Positions 21,612 to 56,900 are shown, numbered from the stretch's first letter. The stretch is 64,000 bases of DNA from Psammoneis japonica (GCA_008632985.1 QPGO01000011.1:248001-312000), one strand, 5' to 3'. Notes: generated by a model from the letters alone, not told the origin. Made by a program: numbers and translations.

Positions 21612-21788
21612 GCCTTGTAAAGACCGACAAGGGGAGATGACCTCATCACCCATTGATGGCGCATCGGGAAGTCACCCCCCGCTCTGCCTCCATTGAACGC
21701 ATCTAAGTTGGCGTCTGGAAGCAAGCTGCTGTTGCTCATTCTTCCAAAGAGCTTCAGCAGCAAGCCAAATGGACAGTCTAAAAGCGCT
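21612..21788 (+). repeat. Split direct repeat A1
   Basis: Matches 26844-27022 (gcct.gtaaagaccgacaagggg...gacagtctaaaagcgct). Confidence 0.95.
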
Positions 21789-21805
21789 GTTGTGTTCGGC
21801 GGAGG

Positions 21806-24130
21806 ATGCCATCCGCCGCTGCATCTACAAAGCTCGCAGGATTGTCACACGTTGTGAATCAAGACGGAAACATCGGAAACAATCCGCCGCCGGATGCCGC
21901 TGCAGCGGCACAACAACCTGGGGGCGGACAAAATCAACAACCGATTCCGGCGGCCAACAATGCCCAGAACGTGCCGCCAGCACCGGTGCATCCAGTGGCT
22001 GGCAGTGCCAGGAGCAGCAGCACAACCAGCCGCAGCGCAGGCAGGACAAGCCCCTGGAGCACCACCACAACAGCCACCACCCCAAGTGCCACCCGTGCCG
22101 CCAGCAGGTCCCGCGGGGCAGGGCATTCCAGCACCACCAGCAGCAACCCGCACTTGTCGGGATTGCCACACTCGCATGCCATCAAGGATTCACACGCCGG
22201 TGACTGTGCGGAAATCATGCAGGACTTCATGGTCCCACCACAAGGACAGTCACGCTGTGACCCTGACATGCTGAGAAACCGAGTTGGGGCAGCTTCATCA
22301 CACGATTTGCCTGTGGCTCTTGTGCAGCACTGCCGGGTGCCAGGAGGTGACGACATTGGAGTCATGCAGGTGCTCCATTGCACAACCCAGCACCCAATCA
22401 CGGCAGCAGGACCAGCACAACCGTGGGACGGACAATTTTTTGCGCTCGCAGGCGACCTGACGATGGGACAACACCAACTTGCACCCATCGCTAATGATGC
22501 ATTCCAGTTGGCCCAACACGGCACATGGGTGCCGACCGACGTGGCGCTGCAAGCCCACATTGTTGCAACCCCGGAAGGATTGCATCCACAAGTGCAGCCA
22601 AATGACCCAGATGCTGTTGAGGTCAGGACGCGGAACACCATGATGGTGCCATTCGCGTCTGTTAATCTCTTGCTTTCAATGCCGTTGATGCCGAAGCAAG
22701 CATTTGCCCGGGTGCTGGGAGCTGTCACAGCTGCCAATGCAGTCAACGAATGCAGGCCACTTCTGGATTTTTTGAAAGTAGCATGCTGCGCAACAGCGTG
22801 GGACCAACACACATCCGAAGTGGTGCAAGCATGGCCAACGATGGCGCAACCACCCAACGAAGTGCCAACTCGTTTCTTCAATGCGATGGTGCAGCGCGAT
22901 CTTCCGAACCGCGCAGGCCAACTGCTGCAACCGCGCCAGTTTGAACCAGTGGTCACTGCCATCGAGAGCTTAACAGCAGAGCAGCGCCAACAACGTTTAG
23001 ATGCGGAAGCGCGCCAACAGGCGGCATCGCACGGCAAAACACCGACGGAGTTCTGCGGGGAGTTTGGCATGGCCAAACTCATGCATTTGTGCCAGGTGCA
23101 TCATGAAGCCAACCTGCCACCACTCTGGGCGCAACTGGCGGCCTCTCCCAAGACCGGTTGAATCGCCGCCGTCCAGAATGCAATCGATGAGCAACGGCAA
23201 GCACACCACGTGTACTTCAATGTGCCGGTGACCGTAAATCTGGTCACAAAACTTGCCCAAGTCGACTTTGCCGGGCACAACAAGGACAAGTTAACTCAGG
23301 GAATCACCCCTTTTTTGTTCAGCATTGCTGCACCAGAACAAGCCAAGCAGACCGCCTGTCGCAACTCTGTGCATCAACAGATTCATGGAGGCGATGGTGC
23401 ACCTTCGCTGGCAGACACGCGAGTGTTGGAAGCCCCCGGCGATGCCATGGTGGCTGCTGCGATCCAGGCGGTTCAACAGTCTTTCGATGGGTTGCGCATC
23501 ATCCTCTCTGCAGCCTTTGGCACAGCACATCCACTGGCACAGTGGTTGACTCACATGCACCAGTCCATGGACGTCCAAGCGAATGATTTGGCGGTGCAAG
23601 TGGTGTCGCACCCGACGTCACCAGCGGACCTACAATGTTGCGCGCAGGCAAAGATGTGCCATTGGTTTCAAGCACAGACGTGCTCACAAAACCCTGTCCC
23701 ACTCCAACCACTCCCAGTGGTGGCTGAGGCCGCACAAGGCGCCTGCCATTGGCGTCTCGACTCACCGACGTCTGTCCTTCAACCGCCCACGACACCACGT
23801 TCGCAGACCTCTGTGCAGTCACCGCCTGGACCAAGCCGCATAAATGCGCCAGGCGACAATTCTGTCGTCCGTAACGAACAGTGCGACGAGTGCTTCACGG
23901 TCTTGCGGGACCGTCCCAATGTACGTTCTCGCACCGTCAAGCAGTGCTGCGCCCGTGACAACATTGCCTTGCCTGTGGATTCCCAAGGGGCGCCTCGTTG
24001 TCTTCCACACCATTTCATTGGACAGTGCAACAACAACTGCGGATCAAGGGCCAATCATCACCATGACCACATGGAGCAGGAGCAGGTCGACCTTCTCGCG
24101 TGGGGTGCGCAACATTGGAAGACCGAACAG
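21806..24130 (+). pseudogene. Ngaro ORF1 (gag-like) with a C-terminal Cys/His finger
   Basis: Long Tyr-poor reading frame broken by TGA at 23159-23161, ending RCLPHHFIGQCNNNCGSRANHH. Confidence 0.7.
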
Positions 24131-24289
24131 GTCATCGGCAATGGCTCCTGCTCGGGGACATGGAACCAAGAGCCACTTCCCACATGGGCACACAAGCCCA
24201 TGCATCCACAACCCCTGCAAGTGGAGTCTAGGAAACGGCGCTTCAGCCCCACAACAGGTGGACAGGATGTGGCCGCATCAGTGCTGACT

Positions 24290-26215
24290 GACAAATCAGG
24301 CAAGCAAATTACACGCGATGCACAATCATTGCGCCTTAGAGGCCTCAGTTGCTTGTTGCGTCTGTGCAGTGGTGGAGGTGACTGGGGACCATTGGTGACA
24401 ACGCGACAGCATGCAGCACACCAAGTGCTCACCAGCTGCAAATGTTGAGGTGCACCGGTCACTGTTGCAGACGCGCCATGGTCCAACACTGAGCTCCAAG
24501 GTAGCATCGCTCGAGGACCACACAAGTCCGCCTACGAACACATCGAGTTTTTGCGCAAAGACATGTCTGACTATGTCGACAAGGGTTTCTGGGTGGTTGT
24601 CCCACATGACAACGTCAAAAAATGAACCCAATCTACGGCTGAGCCCTGTCGGCAGCGTGGTCCCTCAACACGCACGTAGACCACGACCGATTGTGGACTG
24701 CACATTCTACGGTGTTGACCCTTCCACACAGCCAAACGTGCCAATGGAATCCATGCAGTTCGGGCGCACGTTGGACCGCATCCTTCAGCGCGTTCTCCTC
24801 GCCAATCCAAACAAAGGCCGCATCTGTCTCATGAAGATTGACTTGGCTGATGGCTTCTGCCACATGCAGCTGGCGCCAGAGCAAGCACCCACACCAGGTG
24901 TGGTTTTTCCCCGCCTTCCCGGAGAACCCCCCCCCAGTGGCCATGCCCACTTGGCTGCCCATGGGATGGTCCAACTCACCACCGGCATTTAGTGCGGCAA
25001 CCAAGACGGTCACCGACATTGCCAATCACCAGCTCATGTGCAACCATCGGGCACCGCACCACCCACTCGAACCTCATCTTGCCAGCCGTCCACCAAAGCA
25101 CCACGCCATCACTGCTGACGTGAATCCGTCTGTCGCTGTCCCAGTGCCAGACACGCCGGATCAACACCTCGCGCACCACCGCCAGTGGCACCTCCAATGT
25201 GTTGACATCTACATTGATGACTTTGTTGGCGAAGCCCAAGGCTCCAAACAATCGCCATGCAATGTGCATCGCACGATCATGCGTGCCATTGACGATGTGT
25301 TCCGTCCACTTGACGACCAAGACCACCCCAGTTGCAAGGAGCCAATCTCAGTCAAAAAGCTCTGCAAAGGCAACACCACTTGGTCAATGCAGAAGGAGGT
25401 CCTGGGGTGGATCATTGACACTTTGTCCATGACCATCTGCCTTACGCCGCGACGCCGCGAGCGCCTCCGCACCACGCTGTATGAAGAGTTTCCCCGCCAT
25501 CGCAAGCGGGCAGCACTTGGCGACCTGCACAAGCTTCTTGGCGAACTGCGATCCCTCACGCCCGGCATTTCCGGGTCTCGCAATCTGTTCTCCGAACTCC
25601 AGGAAGCCTTGCTCCACACTGGGCCAGACGGGTGAGTTCGTCTTGCCCGCAACTTTCACGACATCTTGGATGATTTTCGGTTGTTGTGCCGCAGGCTCGA
25701 CCTCCGCCCCACCCGTGTCCAAGAACTTGTCCCCCCTTTTGCCTGCTGTCACAGGCTGCCATGATGCAGCCGGTCATGGCGCAGGGGGGGGTCCTTCTCC
25801 CTGCGCCGTCAGCAGTCGCACGCAGCACCACGCTGCGTCACTCCACTGCGCACCGCCGGAGACCACAACACAATGCCGGACCTGTTGTCTGGCGCATGAA
25901 TTTCCCTCGGGCAGTCATCGACCGACTGTCCACCTTTAAGAATCCCCGCGGCCCTGTTGCCAACACCGACTTGGAGTTGGTTGGTGGCATTGTGCAATCC
26001 TGTGCCGGGGCAGACTGTTTCGACGTTCGAGAGCGCATGGTGCTCAACCGCGCGGACAACACCGGCACTCTCTTTCGTCAACGCAAGGGCTCCACCACCA
26101 CTGCAAAGGTTGCAGCACCCCTCCTCCGACACCAAGGTCACCACCAACGTTTCCACCACTGCCTGTTGCTCCACGATCATTTGCCGGGACTGTTGAACAC
26201 CGCTGCGGATGAATC
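24290..26215 (+). pseudogene. Ngaro reverse transcriptase + RNase H
   Basis: RPRPIVDC, KIDLADGF, LPMGWSNSPPAF, YIDDF, KEVLGWIIDT, HDAAGHGAGG, NTDLEL and HLPGLLNTAAD. Frameshifted. Confidence 0.9.
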
Positions 26216-26611
26216 CATTGCGCGAAACATCTCCGCGCCTTTGGCACCACACCAGACACGCCCCTCGGTGTGTGCTTGCATGACAACACCTGGTGCCGTG
26301 TCTCTCCCGCCAACATTGCCAGCATCCTGCGCACCGCAATTCTGGCAATCGGCCCCGCTACGCTGGGTTTCACACCCGCCGATGTCTCCGCTTGCTGTTT
26401 GCGCGTGGCTGGTGCCGTGGCCCTCCCATGTGCCCATGTTGACACCGACGTGATCCGCCTCTCAGGCCGATGGTGCTCCGACAAGATGCTTCGTTGCCTC
26501 CACTTGCAAGCAGAACCTGTCATGCGCAATTTCGCAACCCGCATGTTGGCTGGCGGCCAATTTGTCCTGCACCCCAATGCCGACGTGCCCCTTGCTGCCG
26601 CCGACCCGTGA
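26215..26611 (+). pseudogene. Tyrosine recombinase C-terminal fragment
   Basis: VSACCLRVAGAVAL...IRLSGRWCSDKMLRCLH corresponds to the SLRxGGA...GRWxSD..xxY boxes. The N-terminal part is absent. Confidence 0.85.
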
Positions 26612-26843: not shown

Positions 26844-27022
26844 GCCTCGTAAAGACCGACAAGGGGAGACATGACCTCATTGCCCATTGATGACGCACCG
26901 GGAAGTCACCCCCCGCTCTGCCTCCATTGAACGCGTCCAAGTTGGCGTCTGGAAGCAAGCTGCTGTTGCTCATTCTTCCGAAGAGCTTTGGCAGCAAGCC
27001 GAACAGACAGTCTAAAAGCGCT
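26844..27022 (+). repeat. Split direct repeat A2
   Basis: Matches 21612-21788. Confidence 0.95.
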
Positions 27023-27040
27023 CCCACCTCTCCCTCCCTC

Positions 27041-27174
27041 TGGCCACACTGTTCCAGCTTGGGAATGGAAAGGGATCAACTACGCCAGTAAAGTCCTCCC
27101 ATCCCTGCTAATTACCTGTCTCTAGAATCAGATCACCGCAAGAAGTCGTACGAGCAAAGCGACGCCAGTCGCTG
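27041..27174 (+). repeat. Split direct repeat B2
   Basis: Matches 26710-26843 but retains its TpA sites. Confidence 0.95.
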
Positions 27175-27220
27175 ATCAGCAAATTGAGAAGGGCAACCTT
27201 GGAGTGCAGCTGCCCGACTG
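27175..27220 (+). mobile_element. Continuation of the interrupted Copia RNase H, then truncated
   Basis: (g)at cag caa att gag aag ggc aac ctt gga gtg...tgc ccg act = DQQIEKGNLGV..CPT, which continues FFVT from 21610. Confidence 0.85.
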
Positions 27221-27482
27221 TGACAACACACATGTCTACTGGGGCCCTGGTACTCCTTCTACGTACGTAAATTTGGTTTTCCGGAGTTCTTTTGCGGGGT
27301 AACCTCTTACTTGCAAGAAGGAAAAAAAAGCGCTGGCGCAGATCAGATAGACCCGAGACCGTCACAATGGCGCTAGCATCTCTCTAGAGAGTCAAAACGA
27401 TTGTGCCCTTGAGATTAATGGAAGCATTCTGAAAGCCTTTGACCACATCAGATATTTTAGAGCTGCGCCCTCTAGAGCTCGA

Positions 27483-28450
27483 ATGGGAATGAACGCCTTG
27501 CTTGCCCGAGCAGTTGCCGTTATTTCCTCCACTCCAGTAATGGTACAGAATGAACGAATCACACTGTACTTTTACGGCCTCTGGATGGGCTCTGCATACT
27601 GCCTCGCAATGCTGGCAGCTCTCTTTCACCTTGTGCATCATTTCGACACCCAAACTGTGCAAGAATATCTTTGGGTTATGACTCAGTACGTATTTCCTGG
27701 TGCTGTTCTGGGCGCAAGACTCTGTTCTTGGTTTCTTGAGGATAATTTGAAAGTCTCCAAACTATTTCGTTCTGGTTTCTGGTGGCATGGAGGATTGGTG
27801 GGTACACTGCTTGGAATGTCCATTGGTTGTGCATTTCATGAAGTGCACGTGGTTCCAATACTTGATGGCTTTGGGTTGGCCATACCCGCGTTTGAAATCT
27901 TCAATCGCCTTGGATGTCTATCATATGGCTGTTGTTGGGGACGGGCCGTACATGCCTCTCATCCACACGCCATTCGGTTTGACAATCCACGATCTTGTAT
28001 TCATCGAAAGAATTCTAATGTCAAAGACGAGTGGCTTTATCCCGTCCAGGTGTATGCAGTTATTCTTCGTTCCTGCAACTCTTGATACTATGGCCTCTGG
28101 TGTGGACAATAAGGCAACGTGGCGTGCTGTTATTCTTGGGTATGACTAGTAGTTCCGTTGTTCGTTTAGTTTGTGAAAAGTACCGAGGAGATTTTCGGGG
28201 CAATGGAGTAATCTCCACCAAGATCTTTTGCGTTGGTCAAGTACTGATAGCAGTCCTTTACTATGCGTTTTCACAAGGTGGTTACAACGATCTGCCATCA
28301 ATAGATGGTACCGTCACTTTGGCAATAAGTAGTCTGATGCAGCTCGTACTGGTAAACAAGCTACGGTTCGGGCTGGTGTTTGTGTCAGCCATGCTTGCCT
28401 ATGGATCTGAGTGGTCGCAAACAACCATGACCAGTGTCCCTGCTAAGTAG
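27483..28450 (+). CDS. Prolipoprotein diacylglyceryl transferase (Lgt)-family membrane protein
   Basis: FYGLWM, GAVLGARL, GFWWHGGLVG, FNRLGCLSYGCCWGR, YPVQVY and VRLVCEKYRGD. One frameshift near 28060. The start may lie upstream (ATG at 27367 if frameshifted). Confidence 0.85.
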
Positions 28451-28569
28451 ATCGATGGAAGCCTCACGTTTCGATGGGAATGAAAAGAAAGTTCATTCAT
28501 CTTTTAACTAATATCTAAACCACGAGTCTCACTGAGGGCGGACGAGTGCTCTCAAAGCGCGTTTGATAA

Positions 28570-30760
28570 TCATACTATAGTAAACGAGGCCCAGAAAGAG
28601 GGCACTACTTCAAGGACCATGATGGTCTCGACATCCTCACAGTAGCCAATCCATTCCATTGGGCTTCCACCATACACCTCGTCTTCTGAAAGGCGTTCTC
28701 CGGGCATCACCTGAGTCATTGGTATGACCTTCACATTGTTGCCAACTTGACATCCTGGAAGTAACACGGATCGAAATCCTATCCGGCAGTTCTCTCCAAC
28801 CGAGATTGGCTGAAATTCAAGCTTTCCATTCTGAAACGAATGGCCGAGTATCGTCACCTCGTCCTGTATGACAGTATGTTTTTTCACCGTCAAAAGATCC
28901 GCTTCTATCACTAGTGCTGAAGATGACACTGCAGTACCAGACTCTATGTTTGCTCCAAAGGAGTTCCAAATGCAACGGGTGAGCCAAAAATCATTGATAA
29001 CCTGAAGTGCCACCCTGGTGGAAATTGAAATAAGAATGCTGGCTGCCATCCACCGGAGTATGCCCATGCTAAAAAACTCGGCGCTTGGGGCATTAGTAAA
29101 CTTCCCAATGACTACCCACTTAATAAGCCAGCCGACAAACAGCAAAGCTACCCACACGCCGCTTAAAGAAGCAAGCATGACTCCGCAGAAAACTAGGAAT
29201 CCATTGCCAACAACCAAGTAAAGCACTCCGCACACTCCAAGGAGCAGTGCTCTCGTCAAATAAGCGTAAGGAACAAAGATCAACACCATTTCCAGAGCAG
29301 TGAAAAGCCATTTTCTGACCGCCGAAACTGATGCGACATTCAAAGTGCCCTCTTTTCGCCTCGAATGGCTTTTCAGCGGAGGATTTCCAAAAGTCAGGCA
29401 GTTCTCTTCGACTGCTCCCTCAACAACGGTTCCTGCCCCGACTGTGACATTATCTGATAAAGTCGACCCCTCCTTCAACACGGAGCGGTCAAGCACAAAC
29501 GAATTTGAGCCGATACTTGTCTCTTCAAATGTTGCAATGCCATTGCAGTCTACACTGAAGCTGCGAATGACAACGCCATTTGCCATGAAAGTGCCGCTTC
29601 CTGAGACAAACAAATCTGGTTCGTCCGACACGGCTGCAAAGCTATCACACAGTGATGCCGTACGTGCACCAAGGCACCACATCACTGTCCTTCTCAGGAA
29701 GCCAACCTGGGGGCAGGTACGTTCCTTGCAAGCTGTAGTGCCAACCAACGTCTTGCAAATTCTGTCGACAAGACATGACAACATCCGGGTCGAGCGCGGC
29801 CGAAGAGAAGAACCCGACGTAATGCCCACACAACAGCACAAGCAACTAGAGCACCAAGCATGACCCAGACTGGTGACAAAGCGACATATAAAGCTGCAAA
29901 CAAAATGAGATTGGATCCAATTGAATCATACAGAACCTTGACTGCAACAAGGTACACCAAAAGGGTTGCAAGGACAGGGATTAGCATCACAAATGGAGTC
30001 GCCCATCGTAGGACTAATCCAAAGACCTCAGATCTTTTTTCTCCACTTGATAGATGGTCAGTAACTAGTTCCTTTTTCTGCATGAGAGTACCGAAAACCT
30101 TGCATTTCGGTCCAACATGTGCATCTCTCGGCACATAGGTGAGTGGCCCGACTTCTGCGTGCTTGCCAACTGAACTATTCATCCCCAAAACCGCTCGAGG
30201 TTGGACTATGCTTCCATCGCCAAGAGATATACGTCCAGATTCGATTCTTGATGGCAGTTCCTCCATGCATCTCAAGGCTACACTTGATGAAATGTAACAG
30301 TTCGATCCGATCGAAACATGACAAGGATTTCGCAGGCAATTCTCCTCTACGAAAACGTGGCGTCCTATCTTTGCCCCGAAAGCCCGATAAAAACATGGGA
30401 GCCATGGTGTGCCGCCAATGAACGAGCCATGAATGGCATCAGTCAGTAGCCAGAGCCTATCAAAGATATACCATCGGTATGCAGAGAACGAGGAGGAACT
30501 CACAGTTCCTTCCTCGACATTTCTGATCAGAACTAGCTTTGAGCTCAGCGTCAACGCCAAGAGCAAAAGATAAAACGAACCGATTCCGGCTACGACATAT
30601 CCAAAGAGGCTCCCCAGTGTGCTGAAGCGACCTGCGCTGGTCAGCAAAGAAACGAAGGGAAAGAAATGATGCAAAGTAGCAGTGCAACGGATATGACTGC
30701 AGCCAACTTTAGAAGAAGAACATGGAAGCAGTTGCCTTGAACCTCAACATTAAGTCCGTC
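28570..30760 (-). other. NRPS terminal domain: transmembrane segments alternating with three left-handed beta-helix repeats, epsilon-poly-lysine synthetase (Pls)-like
   Basis: [45 protein letters not shown] and [34 protein letters not shown], separated by hydrophobic helices. Confidence 0.8.
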
Positions 30761-33700
30761 AGCAGTCGAATACAGAGGCGTCTGGATTTGTGCTGCATAC
30801 CGGTGGGCTGTGCTCAGCCGTTGTGTGATGGTTGTAGATAGTCGACGACAAGTACGCATTCATACACATCACGCACAGACAACTTGTCCTGTGACAAACC
30901 TGATTCCCGTGCTTTCGACACAAACTGCGCAATGGTAAGGGAGTTCGCCCCTAGCGACTCAATAATATCCGCTGTCACCGATACAGTTTCTGATGGAATT
31001 TCCAATACTCCCGATATTATCTCAACATGTCGAGCTTCCATCTCATTTGAAGGTGCCACGTATTCTTCCTCAGATGAACCTGCCAGAAGGGGATCGAGAA
31101 TCATCCCCAAAAGCGCTTTCTCGTCCACTTTGCCATTTGAATCCAAGGGCATCGCATCGACAACTTTTACTTTCGATGGAATCATGTAGTCCACCAGCAT
31201 GCGACGGCACCATGTCGTCAGATCGGAGCTCTCCGCCTTTCTTGACCCAATGAGGTAACGAACGCAACCAGCCGAGACCGAGGCTCGTCCAACAACACAA
31301 CAGCACGGTCCACATCTTCGTGTCTCTCCAGTACGGACGATACTTCGCCAAGCTCGACTCGGTATCCTCGCAACTTGACATATGACGCCTTGGACTTAAC
31401 TCGGCCCACAAAATCCAATAACCCATTCGGCAACACGCGGACGAGGTCTCCTGTTTGGTACAGGCGATCGAAGGCACTTTTCCTGCCATCCTGCGTTCCA
31501 TGACTGGACTCGACGGGGAAGAATGGGTTGGGTGCAAAGCTTGCTTGAGTCTCTTCTGGTCGATTGCAGTAACCTCTCGCGAGGGCGACACCACTGATAT
31601 AAAGTTCGCCGATAACTCCAATGGGAACTTGATTCATGTCATTGTCAAGAACATGCAGCTTGACATTAGCAATTGGGCGCCCGAGACTAACACAGGAGGA
31701 GCCTTGCATGTTATGGACGTTGGAGGGCCTCTGCCGTTGGAAAGGTTGAAGTTACGGTCACCGTGGTTTCTGTTGGCCCGTACGTATTGTGAACTTCAAT
31801 ATCTGGCATCGACGTTGTTAGCTGCCTAAATCGCTTGCTCGAAAATCTGTCCCCACCACATACGAAACTTGGGTAGGAACCACTTGGTTGTATTTCGAGT
31901 CCATCCAACAGCCCTGGCGAACAGAAGAGAAGCGAAACATTCATTGCCAAAACTAGCTCTCTCACATTGCTGATTAGGTCACGAGCAAGTGCTGGAGGTA
32001 CTAAACAAAGACATCCGCCAGATCCAAGAGCATACAACATCGTCTGAACGGAAACATCCCATGTGAGGCGCGATGTCAATAGCAAATTGTCGCTACTGCC
32101 CCCTTGGCCGATTCGCCCAGGATATGCACCAAGAAAATAACAACCAAGATTGGCAACAGATCTGTGCTCGATTTCAACACCCTTTGGCCGGCCTGTGCTC
32201 CCCGATGTGAACAAAACGTAGCACAAGTTGTCCAGCCCAACCTCCACGCCCCTTGGACGATGCGAAGACTTGCCATCTAAACCTGCGTCTTCAATGGCAA
32301 ACGCATGCCTCTCGAGGCGTCTGTGCAGGTCGTCTACTCTACTGCTCACGCAAACACTAATGTTGGCATCCTCCACAATACTCGCAATTCTCCCATCGGG
32401 ATAGTCATCATCCATGGGGACGTAGGCAGCTCCAGCCTTGAGGATGCCCAAAACAGCAATGATCTGGTCAAAGCCACGTGGGAGCAAAATTCCGACACAC
32501 TCCTCCACCTGAACATCGCAGTCCTCTAACAAGTAGTGCGCCAGCTGGTTAGCTCGGGCGTCAACTTCCTGGTATGTCATGGTCTCATCCATCATGCGAA
32601 GTGCGACCGAGTCCGGTACACGATCTACCGTAGCCTCAAAGAACTCGTGCATCAGTGGCCACTTCTTCCAGTCCACTACTTGACCAGTAAGGGCCTTTTG
32701 TAAAAACTGCTCCTCCGCAGCAGGTAGCGCCAGGGCATCGCTCACTGACCCGCATAGCTCTCTCCCTTCCTGCGTTATTACTTCTAGTGCCTTGAGGTAG
32801 GAAGCCAAGAAGCGCTCGGCCGATTCTTCACCCCAGATACTTCGCTTGACACAAATCGATATCGAGCACTTAGTTACGGTGCACTCAATATCGAACTTTG
32901 GTGGCAACATGCTTTGCTCCCACATCATGTCAGAAGGCTCGAAAAGACCCCCTTCGCTGAACGCTGTGTTCATAGGAGGACCTGCCTTGCTCATGTCGTA
33001 GTTGAGTAATGCTTGGAACACGCCTCCTTGCCCCTGTCCCGGCACCTTGGATGACACCACATCAAATGGCACGTCAGCGTGGTCGAGTGCTTCCTGCCAC
33101 AGTGCCCAACGGTCCTCCATCAGTGACACCAGATCCATTTGGTTAATTTCGCCACGTAACCGCAGAGCTATGGTGTTCACGAACATCCCAATCATAGATG
33201 GACTATCCACGTACCCTCGTTCTGCAACTAGGAGGCCAACAACCAAGTCATTCTGGCCGCTGTATCGCTTTAATTGGATTTCCAAGGCACACAAGCACAT
33301 CACGACTGGCGACAATTTCAGCTGAAATGCGGTTTTCTGCAATGACTTCATGAGAGGAGTACTGAATGGCCGAGATACAACCACACATCCAGTCTCATTC
33401 CTACCAGACATTAGGCCTCCTGCTGCAGATGAAGGCTGGATATCTTTTGAGAGACTTAGCATGGGGAGAGGCTCACCATCCACTTCAACGCCAAGGTGGT
33501 CGATCCAGAAGGATGCATCTGCAGGCCCGTTCTCCATTTCGTCACGGAACTGTGCCCATGACCAGTCAACGTAGTCAGACGCCAAAGTGGGCAATGTATT
33601 AGTGTCTTCATACAATTCCGCCAACTGCTTCACGAACGGTTCCACACTTCCGCCGTCGAAGCCGATGTGATGAAATACCAACAGCAATTCGGAAGAAGAA

Positions 33701-36700
33701 GGTAGAAAGTATGCTCGCAACGAGCATTCTGTCGCCAGATCAAAGGGCACAAACATCAATCTCTTTAGCTGCTCGGCATAACCTTCTCGGGTGCCCATGC
33801 CATCCAACACTTCGATCTTGAACTCATCTGCTAAACTGGCATCAACAACACCAATCGTTGACGTTTCACAAGTTGGATCACCCACATATTTCGTACAAAG
33901 CACTCGATGTACCTTTAGCATCGCACGTGTGGCACACTCTAACCTATCGATATTAACCCCATCACGCACTCGTAAGAGGTGAGGAATGTTATATGCCCCG
34001 CTCTTAGGATCCATGAATTGAGCCAGCAACAGTCGCTGCTGCGCGTGTGTCAGTGGATAAGCTACCTCGCTGCTATCCTCGGCGGCTTCGAAATCGTACT
34101 TCGACTGAGCCAGGCGAGCCAAGAATGATGGGTGCTTCCGCAATGCCGAAACCTCCTCCGGAGATAACACACAAGAAGAAAGTCGACGCGGGACATATTC
34201 ATTCCTGAAGGACAGCATGGACTGTTGTTTCTCTCGCCAAGTAAGCAACATTGCAATCTGATGTACCGTTGGTGACTCATAAACATCCTTGATCGACAGG
34301 GAGGCAAACGAGCCTCCAAACTGCCTCGTTTCAGATACAAACTGTGCAATCACAAGGGAGTTCGCGCCCAAAGTACCAAAAGCATTTGCAGAAACCGAAA
34401 CGGTCTCGGACGGAATAGCTAAAACCTTTGCAAACGCTTGAACAAGCTGAATCTCCATCGCGTTCGAAGGTGCCAAGTATTCTTCTTCCTCGGATTGGGA
34501 TGCACCTGCCAATAGGGGATCGAGAATCATCCCCAAAAGCGCTTTCTCGTCCACTTTGCCATTTGAATCCAAGGGTATCGCGTCCAAAACCGCTACTTTC
34601 GATGGAATCATGTAGTCCACCAGCATGCGACGGCACCATGTCGTCAGATCGGAGCTCTCCGCCTTTCTTGACCCAGATGAGGTAACGAATGCAACCAGTC
34701 GAGATCGAGGCTCATCCAACACACAACAGCACGGTCCACATCTTCGTGTCTCTCCAGTACGGACGATACTTCGCCAAGCTCGACTCGGTATCCTCGCAAC
34801 TTGACATATGACGCCTTGGACTTGACTCGCCCACAAAATCTAATAACCCATTCGGCAACACGCGGACGAGGTCTCCTGTTTGGTATAGATGGTCTTGTGT
34901 AAGTCTGTGACCAATGTCGCCATTGCATTCAATGAATGGATTCTGTGTAAAACTTGCAGAAGTTTCTTTCGGACGATTCCGATAGCCTCTCGCGAGGGCG
35001 ACACCACTGATATAAAGTTCGCCGATAACTCCAATGGGAACTTGATTCATGTTTGTGTCCAGCACGTAGAGTTGAACATTGGGGATGGGGCGCCCGATAG
35101 GTACGGCAGAACCACTTTCCTTACTTAGTAACAATCCTTCATCATCGTAGAATGTCTGCGTCACGTTGACGGTTGCCTCAGTTTGGCCATATACATTGAA
35201 CACGTGGCTTCCTAATGACCGGAACAGAGCAATCGTATCTTTACTCAGCACGTCGCCTCCGACAACGGCGCACGGGCACTTTGGCAGACTTTCGGGGTCG
35301 AGTCCATGAAGTAGTGAAGGCGCCGAAACTATCAAGGTAACATCCATGGAACGTACAAGTTCATTGATATAGCCAACAAGATTTGGGGCGAACTTTGGTG
35401 GAACCAAGCAGAGAGAGCCACCAGATACAAGTGGATAGAGCATCGTGTCCACAGACCCATCCCACGAAAGGCGCGAGGAAAAAAGGACACGGTCGGTTAT
35501 GGTGCCCAAGCAAGCAGAGCGTTGAGAGATTACACAACCGAAATTGGCAACAGATCTGTGCTCGATTTCAACACCCTTTGGCCGGCCTGTGCTCCCCGAT
35601 GTAAACAAAACGTAGCACAAGTTGTCCAGCCCAACCTCCACGCCCCTTGGACGATGCAAAGACTTGCCATCTAAACCTGCGTCTTCAATGGCAAACGCAT
35701 GCTTCTCGAGGCGTCTGTACAGGTCGTCTACTCTACTGCTCACGCAAACACTAATGTTGGCATCCTCCACAATACTCGCGATTCTCCCATCGGGATAGTC
35801 ATCGTCCATGGGGACGTAGGCAGCTCCAGCTTTGAGGATGCCCAAAACAGCAATGATCTGGTCAAAGCCACGTGGGAGCAAAATTCCGACACACTCCTCC
35901 ACCTGAACATCGCAGTCCTCCAACAAGTAGTGCGCCAGCTGGTTAGCTCGGGCTTCAACTTCCTGGTATGTCATGGTCTCATCCATCATGCGAAGTGCGA
36001 CCGAGTCCGGTGCACTATCTGCCGTAGCCTCAAAGAACTCGTGCATCAGTGGCCACTTCTTCCAGTCCACCACTTGACCAGTAAGGGCATTCTCGAGGAA
36101 AAGTTTGGATTGTTCCGGAATGATAGTCAGATCTTTTGCAGGCTTATCCAAGGCGCCAGGTGCAGTCATGCTGCGAAGCACCTGGAAGAAGGACGAGAGG
36201 AAGCCTTCTGCAAAAGACTGACTCCAAATCATTTTGTGGACCAAGAGCTTGAACCGGTCCTTATCTCGTTCGAGTACGATGTCAAAATGAGAAAAGGCTG
36301 GATCGAACGTTTCATTGACACAGGAAGCAATCTCTAAGTCTGCCGTGGTTTCTCGAATGTTTGTGACGTAGTTGAAGATGGCTTGGTATACTCCCTGACA
36401 CCTCTTTCCTTTTTCAGCCACCACGTCAAAAGGCACATCTGAATGTTTTCGCGCAGATGTCCAAAGGAGAGAGCGCTGGTGCAGTAGATCTTTCAGTGTA
36501 AGACAGCCGCAGTCGCCCTCCAAGAGCAAAGCGAGAGTGTTCACAAACATTCCGACTGTTTTTTCAAACACATTCGCGTGTCCTCGTACGGTGACGGGAA
36601 TCCCAACGACGATGTCATCTTGTCCCGTGTACCTCTTAAGTACAATTTCGTAGGCAATCAAGTAAATAAGAAATGGAAAAGTGTCAAACCGAATTGCCAT

Positions 36701-39700
36701 ATCCTCAACAGCTAATTCTAAGCTTTGGTCGAGTGACTGAGTGACCGTGGTTGATGCAAACCTGTGTCCTCCTGGTTCAGCCTGAGGGTCTTTCGGCAGT
36801 TGCAGTATCGGGAGTTTCGCACTTTCATCATTCAAATGGAGATGATTAATCCAGAAAGACGCGTCAGGAACAATGCCGTCGAATTCGGCACGCTCAAACT
36901 CGAGCCAAGCGTAGTCCACGTATGATGCAAATCGTGGAGGCAAGGCACTTGCATTATTGTATAGGGAATTCAGTGCACGGTGAATAGTTGCCATGGAGCC
37001 TCCGTCAACGGCTATGTGGTGGAATACGGTCAACAGCTCATTGGAAGTCTCAATATAGTAAGCTCGCATAGAGGCCTCACGCCGCAGGTCGAAGGGTAAT
37101 ATGGCAAGCTCTTGAGCATCGACGTCTGTGCGCACAACTCGATCGAATTTGAAAGAATCTGCCCATTCCAATTCGATGACGCCGATTGATGGATCAGCTG
37201 AGCCGATGTCGCCCACATATCTCGTGCACAAGACGCAATGCATCTTGAGAAGAGACCGAAACGCATCCTCAAGACGATCAATGTCAGTGTCTCGCCGAAG
37301 TTTCATTAAAATGGGAATGTTGTAGAGACCTATGTCTGGATGCATGTCCTGAATAAAAAGCATGCGTTGCTGGGCCCGGGTGAGTGGATAATGACGAAAA
37401 CTGTCAATTTCAAGATCCGCTTCTTGAAATGCAGAGCAGGACCGGACACGCTGACGATAATGTTCAGAAGTACATAACTCTTGTCTTGATGCGGTTGTTC
37501 GATCGTTGCAGCCTTTTTCAGATACTATTGCCAAGGCAGCTTGGCTCAACTGGTCCACTATCCGATCGATTGATTCTGTTGCAAAGTTGGACTTCACGAT
37601 ATCATTTGCCGTTTCGAGATCTACGCTTAGCCGAAGTGAAGATGCGAAAGGGATAAGGAGCGCAGGGCTGCTAATTGTCACTTTGTCCAGAAGCAGATCT
37701 TGGGCTTGGACTCGGATGCCATAGCGCCGGAAAAGGTGACCCGTGAAGGCCACCATGGCCATCGAGTCCATGCCAAGTTCCTGCAGGGTAAGATCATTGG
37801 TAACTAAGGCAGCGTCTATCTTCAACTTTCTGGCAATTATGCAGCGAATAATTTCAATCGCAATCAAACAATGTGGATCATTTGTGGGTGGGAGTGTAGT
37901 CCGATTCCTAGTCACTCCGGAACGGCCGATTCCCGCCGGGAAAAGGGAGCCGGACGCCACCATCGGCAAGTCATGTTCAAGCAGAGCATCTTGTTTCGAG
38001 TCAAGTGCCCAACGAAAGAGCTCACGTAGGGTACCAGATACTGCTTCAATCCTGCACTGCTGTCGACGAATCTTCCCACTTGACGTTTTAGGGATCGTCC
38101 TTTCTTGCAACAAAATGATGACAGCGGGAGTAAGAGAATGTTCGACCTCGATAGTCTGACGGATGGACAGAGCCAAGTCAGAAGATCTCATCTTTCTTGC
38201 CTTTGCTTTGAGTACCTGTGAACGAACTTCGACGGCAATGGCTACAGCCTCCTCCTGTCAGTGCCAAGCACTTGCCAGCTGAATGCAGCGACGCACCCTG
38301 GGCGCACCGAAGCGCCCATTGACTCATCAATAGTATGCTCGATGTCTTGTGGAGCAATGTTTCTGCCTCGCACAATCATAAGATCCTTGCTACGACCAAC
38401 GATGTACAATTCGTTGTCGTGCAGAAAGCCCATATCGCCCGAACGAAGCCACGATCTTTCCAATAAAGCGCTGTCTTCTTCACCCAACCCCCGACCAGCT
38501 TTGCTTGCAGTATATCTCGAGTGACTTTCGGTTTGTCAAAATAGGCCTCTGACTTTGAGCATGAAGATAACCAAACTTCCCCGACTTCGTCTTCCTTGAG
38601 CGCCATCCCGCTTTCATCCACAATCAACAAGCAAATATCGGAGACGACAGAGCGACCACACGAAACAAAGCTCACATTCGACGCCTCGTCCACAACTACC
38701 TTGCCTTGTCTTTCCAAGGAATGTTTTTGAACTCGGAGGCATGTCCCGACCAGCAAGTAACTGTCGCCAGTAATGTGTGCTCGGCCATTCCGTAGGAGGG
38801 ACGAATGACGTTTCCCTGCAAGTTCATGGGACCAAACTGGGTACAGAACGCTTGCAACGCCGACTCTTGAATAGGCTCTGCGCCACACATGATACAATCA
38901 ATGCAAGACAAATCAACTGTCATGCCCCTGGGCCACTTGCGAACGACAAGATTAAAGGCAAAATTGGGCGCGACCAAGACAGTGCTACGAAACTTGGATG
39001 CCGCTTTCAACCAAAGCGGAGGATTCTGAATGAAAGAAATGGGGCTCATGATGGCAAGTAACGAGCCACTGTACGCACTAGCCAAAGAGGAGATCAAACC
39101 CATATCATGATACAACGGTAGCCAGATGAGGACTCGATTCTCATTGGGCTCGCGATCCATCATACCACTGCCGACGATGATACGTGAAGCTGATGACTTA
39201 TGTTCTTGTGAGAAATGACAACACCCTTTGGTGATGATGTTGACCCAGAAGTGTATTGAAGGAAAGCTACATCATTTTGTATCGGCTTTGGAATGGTTTG
39301 GTATACACGACAAGCGGTGTCCCTTTTGACAACAATCCAAGTCACTGTTGGAATCTTGATGGATGGCTTTCTTGTGAAACCGCCCTTCACTGTCGCTGCA
39401 ACAGCTGCGCGAACTCGAATACGATTATATTCCTTATCCGTCAAGGCCACCTTTGCACCACAATCTCTCAGTATATGCGAGAATCGTTCCCAGTCCATCT
39501 GAATATGAGGGCGTGGTGGGATAACAGGTACTGGGATGACACCAGCTTTCAAACAGGCGAGGAATGTGACTGTAAAGTCTAGGCCAGGAAGAAACGAAAG
39601 AATAGCACAATCACCCTTTGAAAGACCAACTCCACCCTCTTGTTTGCTAGCTCGCAACCAACAAGCGAGATTCGAGGTGACTTGATGGAGTTGGCGAAAT

Positions 39701-39882
39701 GTAAGCTCATCCGTAACTTCAAGTTTGTCACTAATGAACTGGTAAGATACCTTTTCAGGCGCTTCTTGTGCCCACAATTCAATCGCATCGAGTATCGAGG
39801 CCGGAACTGGAGTTCCATCAGCAAAATGGCCTCTTGAATTGACGACATAATCGTCATTAGATTCTACTCGTGGCAGCGCCAT
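28570..39882 (-). CDS. Multimodular NRPS: FAAL-T-C-A-T-C-A-T-Pls-like terminal membrane domain (~3,750 aa if frameshifts are corrected)
   Basis: Consecutive ORF pieces overlap or abut through apparent 1-bp frameshifts, with no intron evident. See the domain entries below. Confidence 0.85.
30830..34070 (-). other. NRPS module 2 (C-A-T)
   Basis: [53 protein letters not shown] and LGANSL. Confidence 0.9.
32150..32694. repeat. Intragenic near-identical repeat (A-domain N-terminal core), partner at 35544-36088
   Basis: Long identical stretches by eye. A second pair covers about 31090-31460 and 34515-34885. Confidence 0.95.
34250..37400 (-). other. NRPS module 1 (C-A-T)
   Basis: [53 protein letters not shown] and LGANSL. 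Confidence 0.9.
37670..39882 (-). other. Loading module: fatty acyl-AMP ligase (FAAL)-like domain + carrier domain
   Basis: [75 protein letters not shown] and LGMDSM. Confidence 0.88.
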
Positions 39883-40850
39883 TTGCTTTCAAAGTGCCCT
39901 CTCTCGCTCTCGTTTACTGCCTGCCAATTCACCAACACTGCGGCTTTCACCTCCTCTCTTGTTCTCTCTTACTTGCGTAGAAGCATTTTTATCAAAAAGA
40001 GAAGACGCGAAACAAACTCTGTTGCCGATGTGCCGACGGCCCAAAACCAACACCGAATTGATGAGCCTGTTTGCCGGTTGTCGTCAGCAGGCAAATGGGG
40101 CCCTAAGTACCCGGATGGGGTGAACTGACATTTTTCAGCAAAGGCACTGCGGCACTCAAGGAAAGGAACAATGTGTGAAGCAAAGTGTGACGAGCAGACA
40201 CAAGGAGTTTGTGCAGAAGCATTGTGTCCAGCCACAGTGCTGATGGCTGCAGGAGTGAGCAGAGAAAAAGAAGAAGCGACAGCAGGTGGAGGGAATCACA
40301 TGACGAACCAGGAGCCCAAAAAGAGAGAGTTGTGAGGCTGTTTTGCGGGTGCCAAAAGCAAGCAATTGAGGTGCTCTGAAGCACAACCCAGCAAAAGCTT
40401 GTTGTCGCCCCAGCTGGTCAGCCAAGAATCCCCATGTGTTGTCCATGACAAAGCATCGCCCCAGCCATCACAAAGTGTTTTCAGCACCCATTTTGGTGTG
40501 TCTCGTGACCTGGTTGTTGTTGAGAGTTGCCTCACAAAAAACTGGTTCAGTGCTTGTTGCAAAATCTCCAAGCACGTGAAAGCATTGGAGCTTGCTGAAG
40601 ATGTCTCTGCTGCTGCTGTGAGCTGCTTCTGTCAAATGAGAGCACAAAAGCATGTGCTCCAGAACCTCTCTGCAGAGCCAGAAACTCATCTTTGCTGCTT
40701 TGGTGCAGAGCTCCCAGCTCAGTGCTCTACAGAGACACTGAGATCAACAAGAGCAGCACAAGCAGCAGAAAGTGGCTGTGCATGTTAGAACAGCAAGCAG
40801 CCAGAGCAACAAGAATGAGGTGCAGAAATGACCTCCAGCGTGCACCAGCA

Positions 40851-53579: not shown

Positions 53580-53912
53580 TGTGTTCTATTCTAAAAAGCA
53601 ATGATGGAAAAGTAGTCTCTATCAGGCTTGTCGCGAACGCATTTCTCAATTTTTATCTCATCGTCGTCATGCATCATCGATCAATCGATCGCTCGTCGGT
53701 CGCGTCAGGTCGTCGGGTCGTCGGTCGTCGGTGGTCGGTTGGAACGAAGAATCATCTGCGCGATCACGAATCTCCCGTCAAAAAGACGAAAAGACAGCGC
53801 AGACAATCTTTCTACGTAGTTTCTACGTGCATTTGTATGAGGAAAAATCCCTCTCTATTCGCGGAAGAATGTACGTAGCTTTCTACACATTTTCAGTACT
53901 GAACTTTGTGAC

Positions 53913-56900
53913 ATGCAGGCGGAATTCGACAGGCCTTCCACCTCTGAATTTCCACGTGTTTTCTACGCGAAAAAACGCAGTACCCGCTTCTTCACCGGCG
54001 GCCATGATGTGGATGCAGCGCCACTAATTGTAATGATTACCTCTACCAAAAGCTCCGAAAAGCCACCAAGCTCGAGCATATCTGAACCATTCACATCAGA
54101 ATCACAAATCAACGAAAAGTCCGGTGGTAAAAGGGCCGCTGAAGGTCCAGAAACGGGTGAAAAAAGTGGTCGTGACCTCGATCCCGTACAGTCAGATATT
54201 CTACGTGAAACCAGTACTGAGGCTACGTCCAGATCCGAATTACCCCGCAAGGATGAGGTGAAGACAGCGACGAAAGAAACTACGCAGGAGATGAAAGAGA
54301 CGAAGCCTAATCCACCAACGGGCCCAAACATAGACGCAAACGCTAAAGAGGTATCGGAAGCGCGGAAAAGGCATGCTGAAATCGCAAAGACAAGCGCCGA
54401 ATCGAATCAAAAAGACAACATACCGAAAACAACAGACGCGACTGATCAGGCACGTCCGGAAACAGCTTCCGACATTGAACAACCAGGCAACGGAGATATG
54501 AACGCGATAGTAAAAGATACAGGAAACGATAGAGTCACTCATGACAGAGCCAAAGAGCCGCTCGTCAAGACTCTAACCACGACGCAAGCGCCGCAAAATG
54601 TAGCAACGACCACACAGTCAAAGCACGAGCAAGCGCCACCCAAACTGGTATCGGGAATCGCCAAGAACCCAAAGACTGTTACATTTGATATGAACGACTC
54701 CACGATGAAACCACCTGGCCAGGCTGCGGGGTTGGATCAAAACGCTCGTGGCTCCTCCTCTATTCCAAAAGATACGACTCAACTGTTGTCTCAAACTGCC
54801 AAAGGTGACGCATCTTCCAGGTCTCCGTCTGTATCCCCTGTGAATGTAAATCCTGCATCCGAACTTTCTTATGACGAAACCGTGAGGAGACTGCGCGCTC
54901 CACTGGTTGATGCTTATGGCTCATTCATTGCTCCGACCGACACATCCTTGGCATCTGCCCGCGAGCGACTGAAAACCGCTCTGGAGGAGACGCGCATGCT
55001 CCGTCAGGCCTTTACGGAGCGTGTTTACGAGAAATACAGGGTAGTGTTGCAGCCAGTTCCCACCTCCATTGAACCGGTTATTGAGAACATAAAGGCAGAT
55101 CCAGAGGGTGCCGCCCGCAAGATCCATGAGCAGATGCGAATCATCAAGCAAGAGAAGGAAATCGAGAAAAAGGAGGCCCAGAAGCTCCATGCGCATGCGG
55201 CCGCCAGTGCTGTAGGCGACGGCACAGCACTAAACACGAGAGCTCATACACAAGAAACGGCCGAGCAGCTCGCATGGTTTGGTGCTGGCTTGAATATCGT
55301 CATTCTTCCTGAAGACGACGCGGCTGGAGAGATTGACAGAAGCGTTTATCCTCACCGCGGTCCGACCAATCCTGAAACAGGGCAGCGTGTGCCTGGCCTT
55401 AGTGCCGCGGCCGCATCTGCAGCGGAAGGCTTGTTGGACCGAGTCAGAAGAGGCGGAGCGATTCGAATGGAACGTCAGCGAATGCGTCAGTTGAAACTCC
55501 TTTCCGGGGAAGACACTGAGGGAGAGGCAGACAACAGCGCATATTTCTCGCACTTGCTTTCTGGAAGCTCTTCAGGAAGGACCAACCTTGGAATATCGGC
55601 ACCTACTTCATCAACCACTGGTAAATCTTCCAAGCGATCATCGAGTGCTTCAAGGGGGAACTCAAGCTTTGCTTCCCCACTTCACACTGGCGGCAAGGGA
55701 AGCCGGGGTCGGTCTCAAACCGCACTAACAGGGAGCAACTTACTGAGCCTGAACCCTCACAACGAAGAACTGAACCCACACGGAAGCTCATCCACAGCGG
55801 CAACTGCTGCGCTTGTCTCCAAAGGTGTCGGCACCGTCACGAACAGTAGAACGGTGCAGCAGCGCTGGCGGCATCCTCATCCAGAGTCACATGGCGGGAA
55901 GCGATTGGCGCTCACAGCCCAGGCAAATAGCAAAAAGCTCGACGGAAGCAAAACTGCTCTATCCGGTGTTTCTCCAATGCCCATGTCGACGTATCTGGCG
56001 CTTGCACTCCCACCCATTCCGACAGCAAAGGAGAGAAAAGAGAAGAAATCGGTACAAACTCTGAGCCCCGCGATCGCAACGAGCGCGAGAAGCATGGATG
56101 CTATTCACTGCGTACTTGCGCAATTTGGCGATGCAGAACTCGATGAGCTAGCCCCGCAAAAGCCCGAGCCGTCGACTTTGGACGAAACGAAGTTGCCCCA
56201 AACCAAGGGATGTGATACCGGCGTCGAAGAAAACCAGAAAGACAAAAGTACCGCAGAGAAATCAGAATGTCCCGATCATACCAACCGATCAAAGGATAGC
56301 GCATCACTGAAAAGACGGAAACGACACATCACTGAGATTGGCCTCCATCGCGGACTGCAGCAAGTAAGAGAACAAATGGTTCCGAAACAGTCGGAGGTGC
56401 CAATGCCGGCTGCCAACCGAACAGAGACTGGAGCCGATGTCCGAAGTAGCCCAAACCACGATGCGCGTACAGAGCCCACAAGGCAGCAGTCTCAGATTGA
56501 TCCAATTCTTGCTTTTTCGGTGTTGACAGCTCTCGGTGTCGTTAGTGAAGTTGGCAAGTCATCACAGTCCCGGTATTCAACTCTACTCGCACGTCTTTTC
56601 CAAAACAAAGAAGATCTACCAAAGCCCGGAGATATCGTTGGTACGCCATCAATGTCAAACGCTGAACAGACAGAAAGTCCCGACGCGAACAACGCCCAGC
56701 GCGATACTGTCATTCTTGGGGCTGCGTCGAGGAAGCGGCGCTTTTCGGAGGCTTTTTCCAAGTTGATAGTTGACAAGGAACCGTCAGCGAGCAAAAAGGC
56801 ATGTACCACGGAAGCTACGGAAATGAATGCCGAACGTGCTGCAAAGGAGCCTGGGAACAAAAGTGCCGCGGAAGACTCGATTCTTGCGTCGATTCGAGGA

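Follow-up and report, generated by a model that had tools for sequence, protein, structure and literature searches.

Lipid-initiated nonribosomal peptide synthetases (NRPSs) of bacteria and cyanobacteria begin with an N-terminal FAAL (fatty acyl-AMP ligase) domain and a carrier (T) domain, followed by an N-acylating condensation (C) domain; they are soluble and end in a thioesterase (TE) or reductase (R) domain. A different end is found in Pls of Streptomyces albulus and PosA of Acinetobacter baumannii, the latter producing δ-poly-L-ornithine: in both enzymes a terminal domain directly follows the adenylation (A) and T domains, and TE and R domains are absent. According to PMC10522769, Pls (an ε-poly-L-lysine synthetase) and PosA are single-module A-T-terminal enzymes without a C domain that make homopolymers. 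The same source describes the terminal domain of known members as six helices in three pairs for which no experimental structure was available, and reports AlphaFold models with three β-helices packed like those of sugar-nucleotide acyltransferases. A eukaryotic enzyme of the Pls type, the fungal ε-poly-L-lysine synthetase of Epichloe festucae, is also on record (PMC7179176). The gene analyzed here lies on the minus strand (positions 39882–28570) of a 64,000-nt stretch of DNA from Psammoneis japonica (GCA_008632985.1, QPGO01000011.1:248001-312000), referred to below as the window and numbered from its first letter. Pfam and NCBIfam scans of its stop-to-stop pieces revealed the order FAAL-T-C-A-T-C-A-T, followed by a Pls/PosA-type terminal domain (TIGR02353).

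What is new here is best described as a lipid-initiated two-module NRPS in a eukaryote that ends in a divergent Pls/PosA-type membrane domain and whose layout is conserved in a further environmental eukaryote, if not in more. We consider it probable (roughly 0.6) that the gene encodes an intact, membrane-anchored synthetase of ~3,775 residues whose acyl-dipeptide is released by the terminal domain, and that the breaks in its reading frame are assembly errors. The FAAL-T-C start is that of the lipid-initiated NRPSs, but a membrane-bound end of the Pls type replaces TE or R. With Pls and PosA the predicted protein shares homology over the full length of the C-terminal part, three helix pairs, three β-helix units and a His residue in the third unit. 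It differs from them in the FAAL-T loader and the two C-A-T modules that precede the domain, in its eukaryotic host, in the apparent lack of an acidic pocket residue in the last A domain, and in a terminal domain that is ~21–29% identical to those of the bacterial family members listed and scores below the NCBIfam cut-off. The Epichloe festucae enzyme is said to be single-module, like bacterial Pls.

The gene was read as a single exon from an ATG (39882–39880) to a stop codon (28572–28570), within stop-to-stop frames between 39888 and 28570, and comprises ~3,775 codons once missing bases are counted. The FAAL loading domain (38060–39777, the low boundary being approximate) is spread over four frame pieces and the start of a fifth. 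It gave AMP-binding matches in Pfam (E values of 2.3e-29 and 4.3e-15) and carries an A3-type motif (ten residues, not shown) at 39252; PRK05850, FadD32, PRK09192 and PRK12476 were the best or near-best NCBIfam matches of the four pieces, each of which is individually too short for the cut-offs of full-length models. The first carrier domain, T1 (37673–37852; PP-binding, E 3.4e-08), has its phosphopantetheine Ser codon at 37765–37763 within LGMDSM and is placed between FAAL and the first C domain. Domain C1 (36107–37396) was detected within one piece as a generic Condensation match (E 2.1e-48, profile positions 3–451 of 456) with the HHxxxDG motif (HHIAVDG, starting at 37021), and is expected to be the N-acylating condensation domain. 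It is followed by A1 (34549–36034; AMP-binding, E 1.1e-70; TIGR01733, 321 bits against a cut-off of 317.4; WDGSVD starting at 35464), whose C-terminal subdomain contains two frame breaks, and by T2 (34252–34449; PP-binding, E 1.4e-05; Ser codon 34359–34357 in LGANSL). The second module consists of C2 (32743–34062; Condensation, E 2.4e-43; HHIGFDG starting at 33672), A2 (31120–32640; AMP-binding, E 1.2e-56; WDVSVQ starting at 32061) and T3 (30856–31023; PP-binding, E 6e-05; Ser codon 30942–30940 in LGANSL).

Much of this order can be read within single frame pieces. One of 1,181 aa contains PP-binding, Condensation and AMP-binding matches (T1-C1-A1) and another of 1,042 aa contains AMP-binding_C, PP-binding, Condensation and AMP-binding; two short pieces complete A2 and hold the third PP-binding match, after which come a 72-aa hydrophobic piece and two TIGR02353 pieces. 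A motif scan found the core motifs intact (both HHxxxDG motifs, the three carrier Ser residues, A3, A5 and A7 in both A domains, and A10 twice). The original prediction, made from the sequence alone, had proposed this domain order with these coordinates and intact motifs, and the domain scans, motif scan and hydropathy profile bear it out. Neither Pfam nor NCBIfam models detected a TE or R domain in this gene or in its collinear environmental counterpart (locus L004, see below). The order of the domains implies that T3 comes to hold an N-acyl dipeptidyl thioester, which would be handed to the Pls-type membrane domain; this is in keeping with the earlier proposal that an acyl-dipeptide is built and then processed at a membrane.

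The terminal domain (28573–30736) was recognized by TIGR02353 and Hexapep matches, by hydropathy and by collinearity with its closest relative (P0001). The TIGR02353 match falls into two pieces, covering model positions 40–331 (E 1.7e-28) and 353–694 of 695 (E 2.3e-27), and the homology spans the last ~720 residues of the protein. Three pairs of hydrophobic helices (30736–30522, 30026–29799 and 29295–29095) alternate with three hexapeptide regions, corresponding to left-handed β-helix units at ~30520–30030, ~29620–29300 and ~29090–28640. The third unit contains a conserved His (codon 28840–28842), a putative general base, which is present in 140 of the 156 family proteins compared. At columns conserved in at least 70% of the family the predicted protein is identical in 11 of 16 (the His and 10 of the 15 others), and the acidic residues near the His are kept. 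In a phmmer alignment with chain 1kqa_A of galactoside acetyltransferase (E 1.4e-4), it is paired with residue 115 (position counted from the alignment), His115 being the catalytic base of that enzyme. Inspection of the translations by eye showed that units one and two lack a His at the equivalent position.

An AlphaFold model of the terminal domain of a related environmental locus, L008 (47-row alignment, pLDDT 84.5, pTM 0.88), contains three repeats, each composed of two long helices followed by a β-helix. A Foldseek search with this model returned single hexapeptide acyltransferases only; the four matches with E≤0.001 were all chains of one serine acetyltransferase entry, while the target-normalized TM-scores reached 0.58–0.61 for maltose-acetyltransferase-like chains (query-normalized scores ≤0.18). 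Sequence and Foldseek searches of the PDB found no experimental structure of the terminal domain, and in the literature searched, from which subscription-only papers were outside the scope, no paper on TIGR02353, or on Pls with cryo-electron microscopy, was found. The repeats of the terminal domain match galactoside, maltose and serine acetyltransferases in both sequence and fold, and a phosphopantetheine thioester serves as donor in both cases. However, hexapeptide acyltransferases are soluble homotrimers with three active sites, whereas the terminal domain combines three diverged units in one chain, with membrane hairpins and one His.

By NRPS logic, the FAAL domain would activate a fatty acid as acyl-AMP and load it onto T1, C1 would N-acylate the amino acid loaded on T2 by A1, and C2 would join the acylated residue to the amino acid loaded on T3 by A2. 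The terminal domain may be a pseudo-trimer within a single chain, built of hexapeptide-acyltransferase-like units, with three helix hairpins that anchor it in the membrane. It would have one active site per pseudo-trimer, since an acyltransferase-type catalytic His is kept in the third unit but not in the first two. This site is predicted to activate a non-tethered nucleophile, which would attack the acyl-dipeptidyl thioester carried by the phosphopantetheine arm of T3, a use of the donor that would parallel that of acyl-CoA or acyl-ACP (acyl carrier protein) by hexapeptide acyltransferases. In the original work on Pls, the acceptor was reportedly a free amine and the donor T-bound. By analogy, the nucleophile would most likely be an amine, a hydroxyl being possible, and one transfer per assembly-line cycle at the membrane would yield an N-acyl dipeptide conjugate. 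Sequence and analogy together suggest, then, that the N-acyl dipeptide would be released by transfer to a free nucleophile.

The distribution of the terminal domain was examined with HMMER, using the last 366 residues as the query. This search identified 1,385 relatives at E≤1e-3, 13 of them at E≤1e-30; the closest (P0001) shows 36–39% identity, and the closest ones in general are short proteins or fragments. Eighteen related loci were obtained by scanning metagenome contigs. Environmental eukaryotic homologs are represented by L004/L003, L005, L007, L008, L009 and L012; L004 has the identical layout, with introns, while L008 and L012 show A-T-terminal. Locus L004 (GC content 0.38) is located on a eukaryotic 47-kb contig, of which 21 kb was examined, and adjoins genes for PPR-repeat, EF3-like and lysine-methyltransferase proteins. 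It contains FAAL, C, A, T, C, A and T followed by TIGR02353 (E 1.2e-52), and is collinear with the window gene throughout. Its FAAL counterpart scored 230.8 bits with PRK05850. Identity between the two genes is 25–35% in most domains, rising to 59% over 61 residues of the C-terminal part of FAAL.

In L008, A, T and a complete terminal domain are encoded in one uninterrupted frame of 1,181 aa. In 8 of the 18 loci the terminal domain is immediately preceded by a T domain; the other 10 have too little upstream DNA or no T match of at least 45 bits. The original prediction had considered that the terminal region might prove to be a separate gene. It is part of the synthetase, because L008 is one A-T-terminal open reading frame, L004 has the same full layout and the frames in the window overlap. 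Between T3 and the terminal part of L004 there is a 68-nt GT..AG interval (8995–9062), read as an intron. Locus L007 (838–871), ~75–80% identical to L004 at the DNA level, reads through this junction without the interval, so that either L007 is a transcript or the 68-nt intron is lineage-specific. No poly(A) tails were seen at the ends of the related contigs, which is uninformative.

Pls-type ends are also found behind more than one module in other proteins. A screen with the window's own domains revealed a C domain before the terminal domain in 3 of 156 family proteins (P0025, P0086 and P0120), a count from which divergent C domains can escape, the probe being C1 of the window gene; a partial Condensation match in P0036, detected with Pfam, was missed by it. 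P0025 has the order A-T-C-A-T-terminal and comes from a metagenome-assembled genome (MAG) of Pseudomonadota (L019); a scan with P0025 located only its own MAG. P0086 (6,612 aa) consists of five C-A modules and the terminal domain, and P0120 is C-A-terminal. In P0028 and P0058 polyketide synthase (PKS) modules precede the terminal domain, as detected with Pfam. These five multimodule lines are 25–27% identical to the window gene product in the terminal domain; none has a FAAL-T loader with two modules, and none was found characterized in the literature searched. The full order FAAL-T-C-A-T-C-A-T-terminal was observed, among the proteins and loci examined, in the window and L004 only. Long proteins included no full-length orthologs, only bacterial NRPSs at ~30% identity, and a scan of prokaryotic genomes with an alignment of the eukaryotic clade gave no match. 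The same literature did not contain a description of a multimodule Pls-type enzyme or of a Pls-type enzyme in algae. The architecture, which the original prediction had left open as possibly common and already characterized, is therefore rare and was not found characterized, although it is not unique in that multimodule NRPS and PKS proteins with the same end exist. Further unusual fusions of the Pls-type domain in the databases are WW-FAAL/DIP2-like-terminal (P0090), FAAL-terminal (P0097), A-T-terminal-phosphopantetheinyl transferase (P0023) and cNMP-binding-A-T-terminal-FMN dehydrogenase (P0049).

In the window the gene is split into 12 frame pieces by 11 breaks, ten of which are +1 shifts (as if one base were missing) and one a +2 shift. 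The codon-start coordinates of the successive pieces, modulo 3, are 0, 1, 2, 0, 1, 2, 0, 2, 0, 1, 2 and 0. Neighboring pieces always overlap, with no stop-filled spacer between them. Introns were ruled out as the source of the breaks, because the pieces overlap and the shifts are of one or two bases. When the DNA of module 1 was aligned with that of module 2, single-base gaps in one copy were found exactly at three breaks.

The stretch 27000–40500 was then compared with contigs (not raw reads) from two public runs, X1 and X2, guessed to be of DNA; the single search for public runs that yielded them listed none of RNA. The window and the contigs differ by indels at 48 places in these 13.5 kb, the positions of 12 of which were listed. 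Relative to the window the contigs have 1-nt insertions at 31249, 34720, 34828, 38178, 38185, 38211, 38256, 38485, 38738 and 39890. Six of these match break zones: (i) within the group between 38178 and 38738, the bases at 38256, 38485 and 38738 each remove a break, while the other three add one codon in total; (ii) those at 34720 and 34828 both remove breaks, and both bases exist in the near-identical copy of module 2; and (iii) that at 31249, seen in X2, removes a break and exists in the copy of module 1. When the ten insertions were applied with a script, six pieces fused into a single frame of 2,522 aa and another two into one of 312 aa. The original prediction had envisaged that the frameshifts might be confirmed; at the six inspected breaks the contig insertions instead restore the frame.

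The remaining breaks comprise a +1 shift in FAAL (39160–39271), the +2 shift in A2 (31711–31751) and three +1 shifts within 29694–30859 (piece overlaps at 30814–30859, 30641–30743 and 29694–29925). The last of these was narrowed by homology to ~29670–29730, as tblastn with P0001 placed a break of the terminal domain between 29730 and 29670 (21 residues against 59 nt). The contigs show gaps over all of these zones, their places being unlisted: 2 in the X2 contig over 38982–39997, 5 in the X2 contig over 31610–32178 (equal to +2 modulo 3), and 9 (X1) and 6 (X2) over 27325–31117. Between the window and the contigs indels are about as frequent as substitutions (e.g. 6 gaps and 10 substitutions in 3,129 nt). 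All listed indels inside the gene (28570–39882) are bases absent from the window, and there is no in-frame stop codon besides those due to the shifts. Such a pattern, with indels about as common as substitutions and a base lacking in the window at every indel listed in the gene, is typical of consensus errors rather than of natural decay. The gene is therefore probably intact, the breaks, inspected at 6 of 11, being probably single-base deletion errors of the assembly.

Several points weigh against the reading of an intact synthetase that releases its product through the terminal domain. As regards the integrity of the gene, the listed indel places reach only 6 of the 11 breaks; runs X1 and X2 come from one sample, possibly that of the assembly itself, and were available as contigs rather than raw reads; and long frames elsewhere in the window are unbroken, e.g. 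one of 4.9 kb at 53841–58721. As regards its chemistry, the two TIGR02353 matches score 99.4 and 95.6 bits (~195 in sum) against a curated cut-off of 423.1, and that of L004 scores 179.3 bits. Since these scores lie below the cut-off, the eukaryotic clade is a divergent subfamily, whose chemistry may differ from that of Pls. The evidence on the fold comes from L008, which is only 27–28% identical to the window pieces, and the acceptor may be an amine, a hydroxyl or water.

A rival reading is a decaying pseudogene, in which the breaks would be real mutations of this genome or haplotype, with the read contigs derived from a different allele or strain. In its favor, 11 breaks fall within 11.3 kb of a window whose other long frames are intact, and the insertions at 38256 and 38485 are listed in X1 and not in X2. 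However, 6 gaps are likewise present in the X2 contig there, and the two “missing” insertions may simply be placed a base away. Moreover, every break is in the missing-base direction, the frame contains no stop codon apart from the shifts, the ratio of indels to substitutions is unlike that of natural divergence, and all catalytic motifs are intact, which together make decay of the gene very unlikely. Frames of 3.4–4.9 kb elsewhere in the window are intact and the indel errors seem to be locally concentrated in 27000–40500; because those long frames are unbroken, the local error density is taken to be high. Our guess is that internal repeats hindered polishing there.

The divergence of the terminal domain, in turn, raises the possibility that it serves mainly as a membrane anchor or export device, with release by hydrolysis or by a separate enzyme, or, in a variant, that it transfers the product to a hydroxyl of a membrane lipid or sugar. 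This would agree with the TIGR02353 scores below the curated cut-off, with the 5 of 16 well-conserved columns that differ from the family and, for the variant, with the common O-acylation of sugars by hexapeptide acyltransferases, the solved relatives included. Retention of the conserved His and its surrounding acidic residues, the absence of a TE or R domain from both the gene and L004, and the direct fusion of the terminal domain behind T in 8 of the 18 related loci argue the other way, and we regard such a role as unlikely.

The two modules of the gene bear on the substrates and on a further alternative. The first 558 nt of A2 (its N-terminal part) are 97% identical to the DNA of A1, and the modules are 86% identical over ~660 aligned columns. 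At the aa level, the modules within a gene are 52% (window) and 98% (L004) identical, as against ~25% between the two genes. Since modules are closer within each gene than to their counterparts in the other gene, this likeness points to independent duplication or to gene conversion, which may still be under way. In L004 the modules (2794–5283 and 5794–8283) share 99.6% identity over 2,490 nt, with a spacing of exactly 3,000 nt. The 97%-identical block of 558 nt in the window is flanked by diverged pocket regions; the segment for the substrate pocket appears to have escaped homogenization.

The pocket motifs are WDGSVD in A1 and WDVSVQ in A2, compared with FD[AF]S[VC]E in all five single-module bacterial relatives. 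At the acidic pocket position A1 has Asp, A2 has Gln and L004 has Ser, whereas Glu is present in 5 of 5 single-module Pls-type relatives; the positions were mapped by PheA numbering, with the residue numbers of PMC10522769 as the only check, and the motifs are partial, so that the assignments are weak. According to PMC10522769, the Glu at this position is one of the two residues that matter most for ornithine activation in PosA, where the acidic pocket residues Asp217/Glu221 serve to bind a diamino acid through its side-chain amine. Weak as these assignments are, judged by its motif A1 might take a basic residue, while A2, with its Gln, is unlike a diamino-acid domain and so speaks against classical polymerization of the Pls type.

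In such an iterative polymerase the terminal domain would repeatedly couple T3-bound units to a side-chain amine of the free chain, giving a lipid-capped or branched isopeptide oligomer or polymer, which corresponds to the lipid-anchored polyamide of the original prediction. All characterized members of the terminal-domain family make isopeptide homopolymers, as stated in PMC10522769; the Asp of A1 in place of the Glu of the five single-module proteins means that residue 1 could be a diamino acid; and the near-identity of the L004 modules would fit the incorporation of the same residue twice, as in a homopolymer. On the other hand, an N-acylated donor on T3 leaves only a side-chain amine as acceptor, so that each step would add a whole acyl-dipeptide, and the domain that feeds T3, A2, has Gln (Ser in L004) rather than an acidic residue, by the PheA-based mapping noted above. 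Polymerization, one of the fates named in the original prediction, gained no supporting evidence, and we consider it improbable; in A2, the A domain adjacent to the terminal domain, Gln takes the place of the Glu of single-module Pls-type enzymes. A single transfer of the acyl-dipeptide per cycle remains the preferred reading.

Frames in the window match adaptin, Sin3, BRO1, CMS1, Rce1-like, RsmB/F-type methyltransferase and PCNA domains. Since these neighboring frames match eukaryotic gene families, the window is, as judged from its gene content, eukaryotic nuclear DNA. The lack of introns in the NRPS gene, the bacterial origin of its nearest C-A relatives among long proteins (~30% identity) and the presence of a bacterial-type Lgt-like neighbor could nevertheless be taken as signs of bacterial contamination or of a chimeric assembly, with the NRPS lying outside a eukaryotic chromosome. 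We consider this extremely unlikely: eukaryotic genes (adaptin, Sin3, BRO1, CMS1, PCNA-like) are present on both sides, the read contigs span from the 3′ neighbor into the gene (27325–31117), the GC content of the gene is similar to that of its flanks, and the closest relatives of the terminal domain are on eukaryotic contigs with introns. The related environmental loci are AT-rich by comparison (GC 0.38, against ~0.49 here).

The gene resembling that of prolipoprotein diacylglyceryl transferase (Lgt; 27351–28450, plus strand) is convergent with the NRPS gene, their 3′ ends being ~120 nt apart, and has one frame break near 28050. It is divergent (PF01790, E 3.5e-19; TIGR00544, E 1.7e-12, at 47 bits below the cut-off of 118.9), and represents a membrane lipid transferase of the bacterial type inside eukaryotic DNA. 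A functional link between this gene and the NRPS was considered and is unsupported: no Lgt match of at least 45 bits was found in the 18 loci, most of which are short, and downstream of the L004 gene there are PPR genes. Three further features of the window were recorded. A frame at 63131–64000 (minus strand) gave weak PCNA_N (E 1.9e-8) and PCNA_C (E 3.2e-11) matches and no relative in a word-indexed protein search; it may encode a divergent sliding-clamp-like protein or be a frame hit by the same assembly errors. Long GC-rich frames follow one another at 21782–26453 (plus strand; GC ~0.58; 459, 428, 197, 266 and 259 aa); they have no Pfam match, and their succession suggests one large gene broken by indels. 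Finally, a degenerate 9-nt tandem array of ~54 copies (62% matches) is located at 11595–12097, in a region of strong strand skew.

The gene also serves as a warning that indels in an assembly can keep genes of this kind from being called. To our knowledge, C-domain-containing NRPSs are scarce in algae. A 2020 survey of three diatom genomes reports only A-carrier-reductase proteins (PMC7073580), and the NRPS-like enzyme that was the first in a diatom to be given a function has the order A-T-R-R (PMC13194791). Should the host be a diatom or some other member of the phytoplankton, the gene would predict an unknown lipopeptide. The roles in surface adhesion, defense or silica association mentioned in the original prediction are purely speculative.

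The characterized Pls-type terminal domains all belong to single-module enzymes that make cationic homopolymers. A conserved enzyme in which such a domain stands behind a lipid loader and two modules would indicate that the domain can act as the release step of an assembly line, and the gene offers a tractable system for studying how a Pls-type domain recognizes its donor and acceptor. As a tentative extension, doubtful at present, it may belong to a conserved family of membrane lipopeptide synthetases found in some eukaryotic plankton, in which a Pls-type off-loader would attach an N-acyl dipeptide to a free amine, be it that of a polyamine, of an amino acid or of its own basic side chains, to give secreted or surface-anchored cationic lipo-(iso)peptides. 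If so, a domain so far seen only in homopolymer synthesis would for the first time have a part in an assembly line, and the compound class would be new for these organisms.

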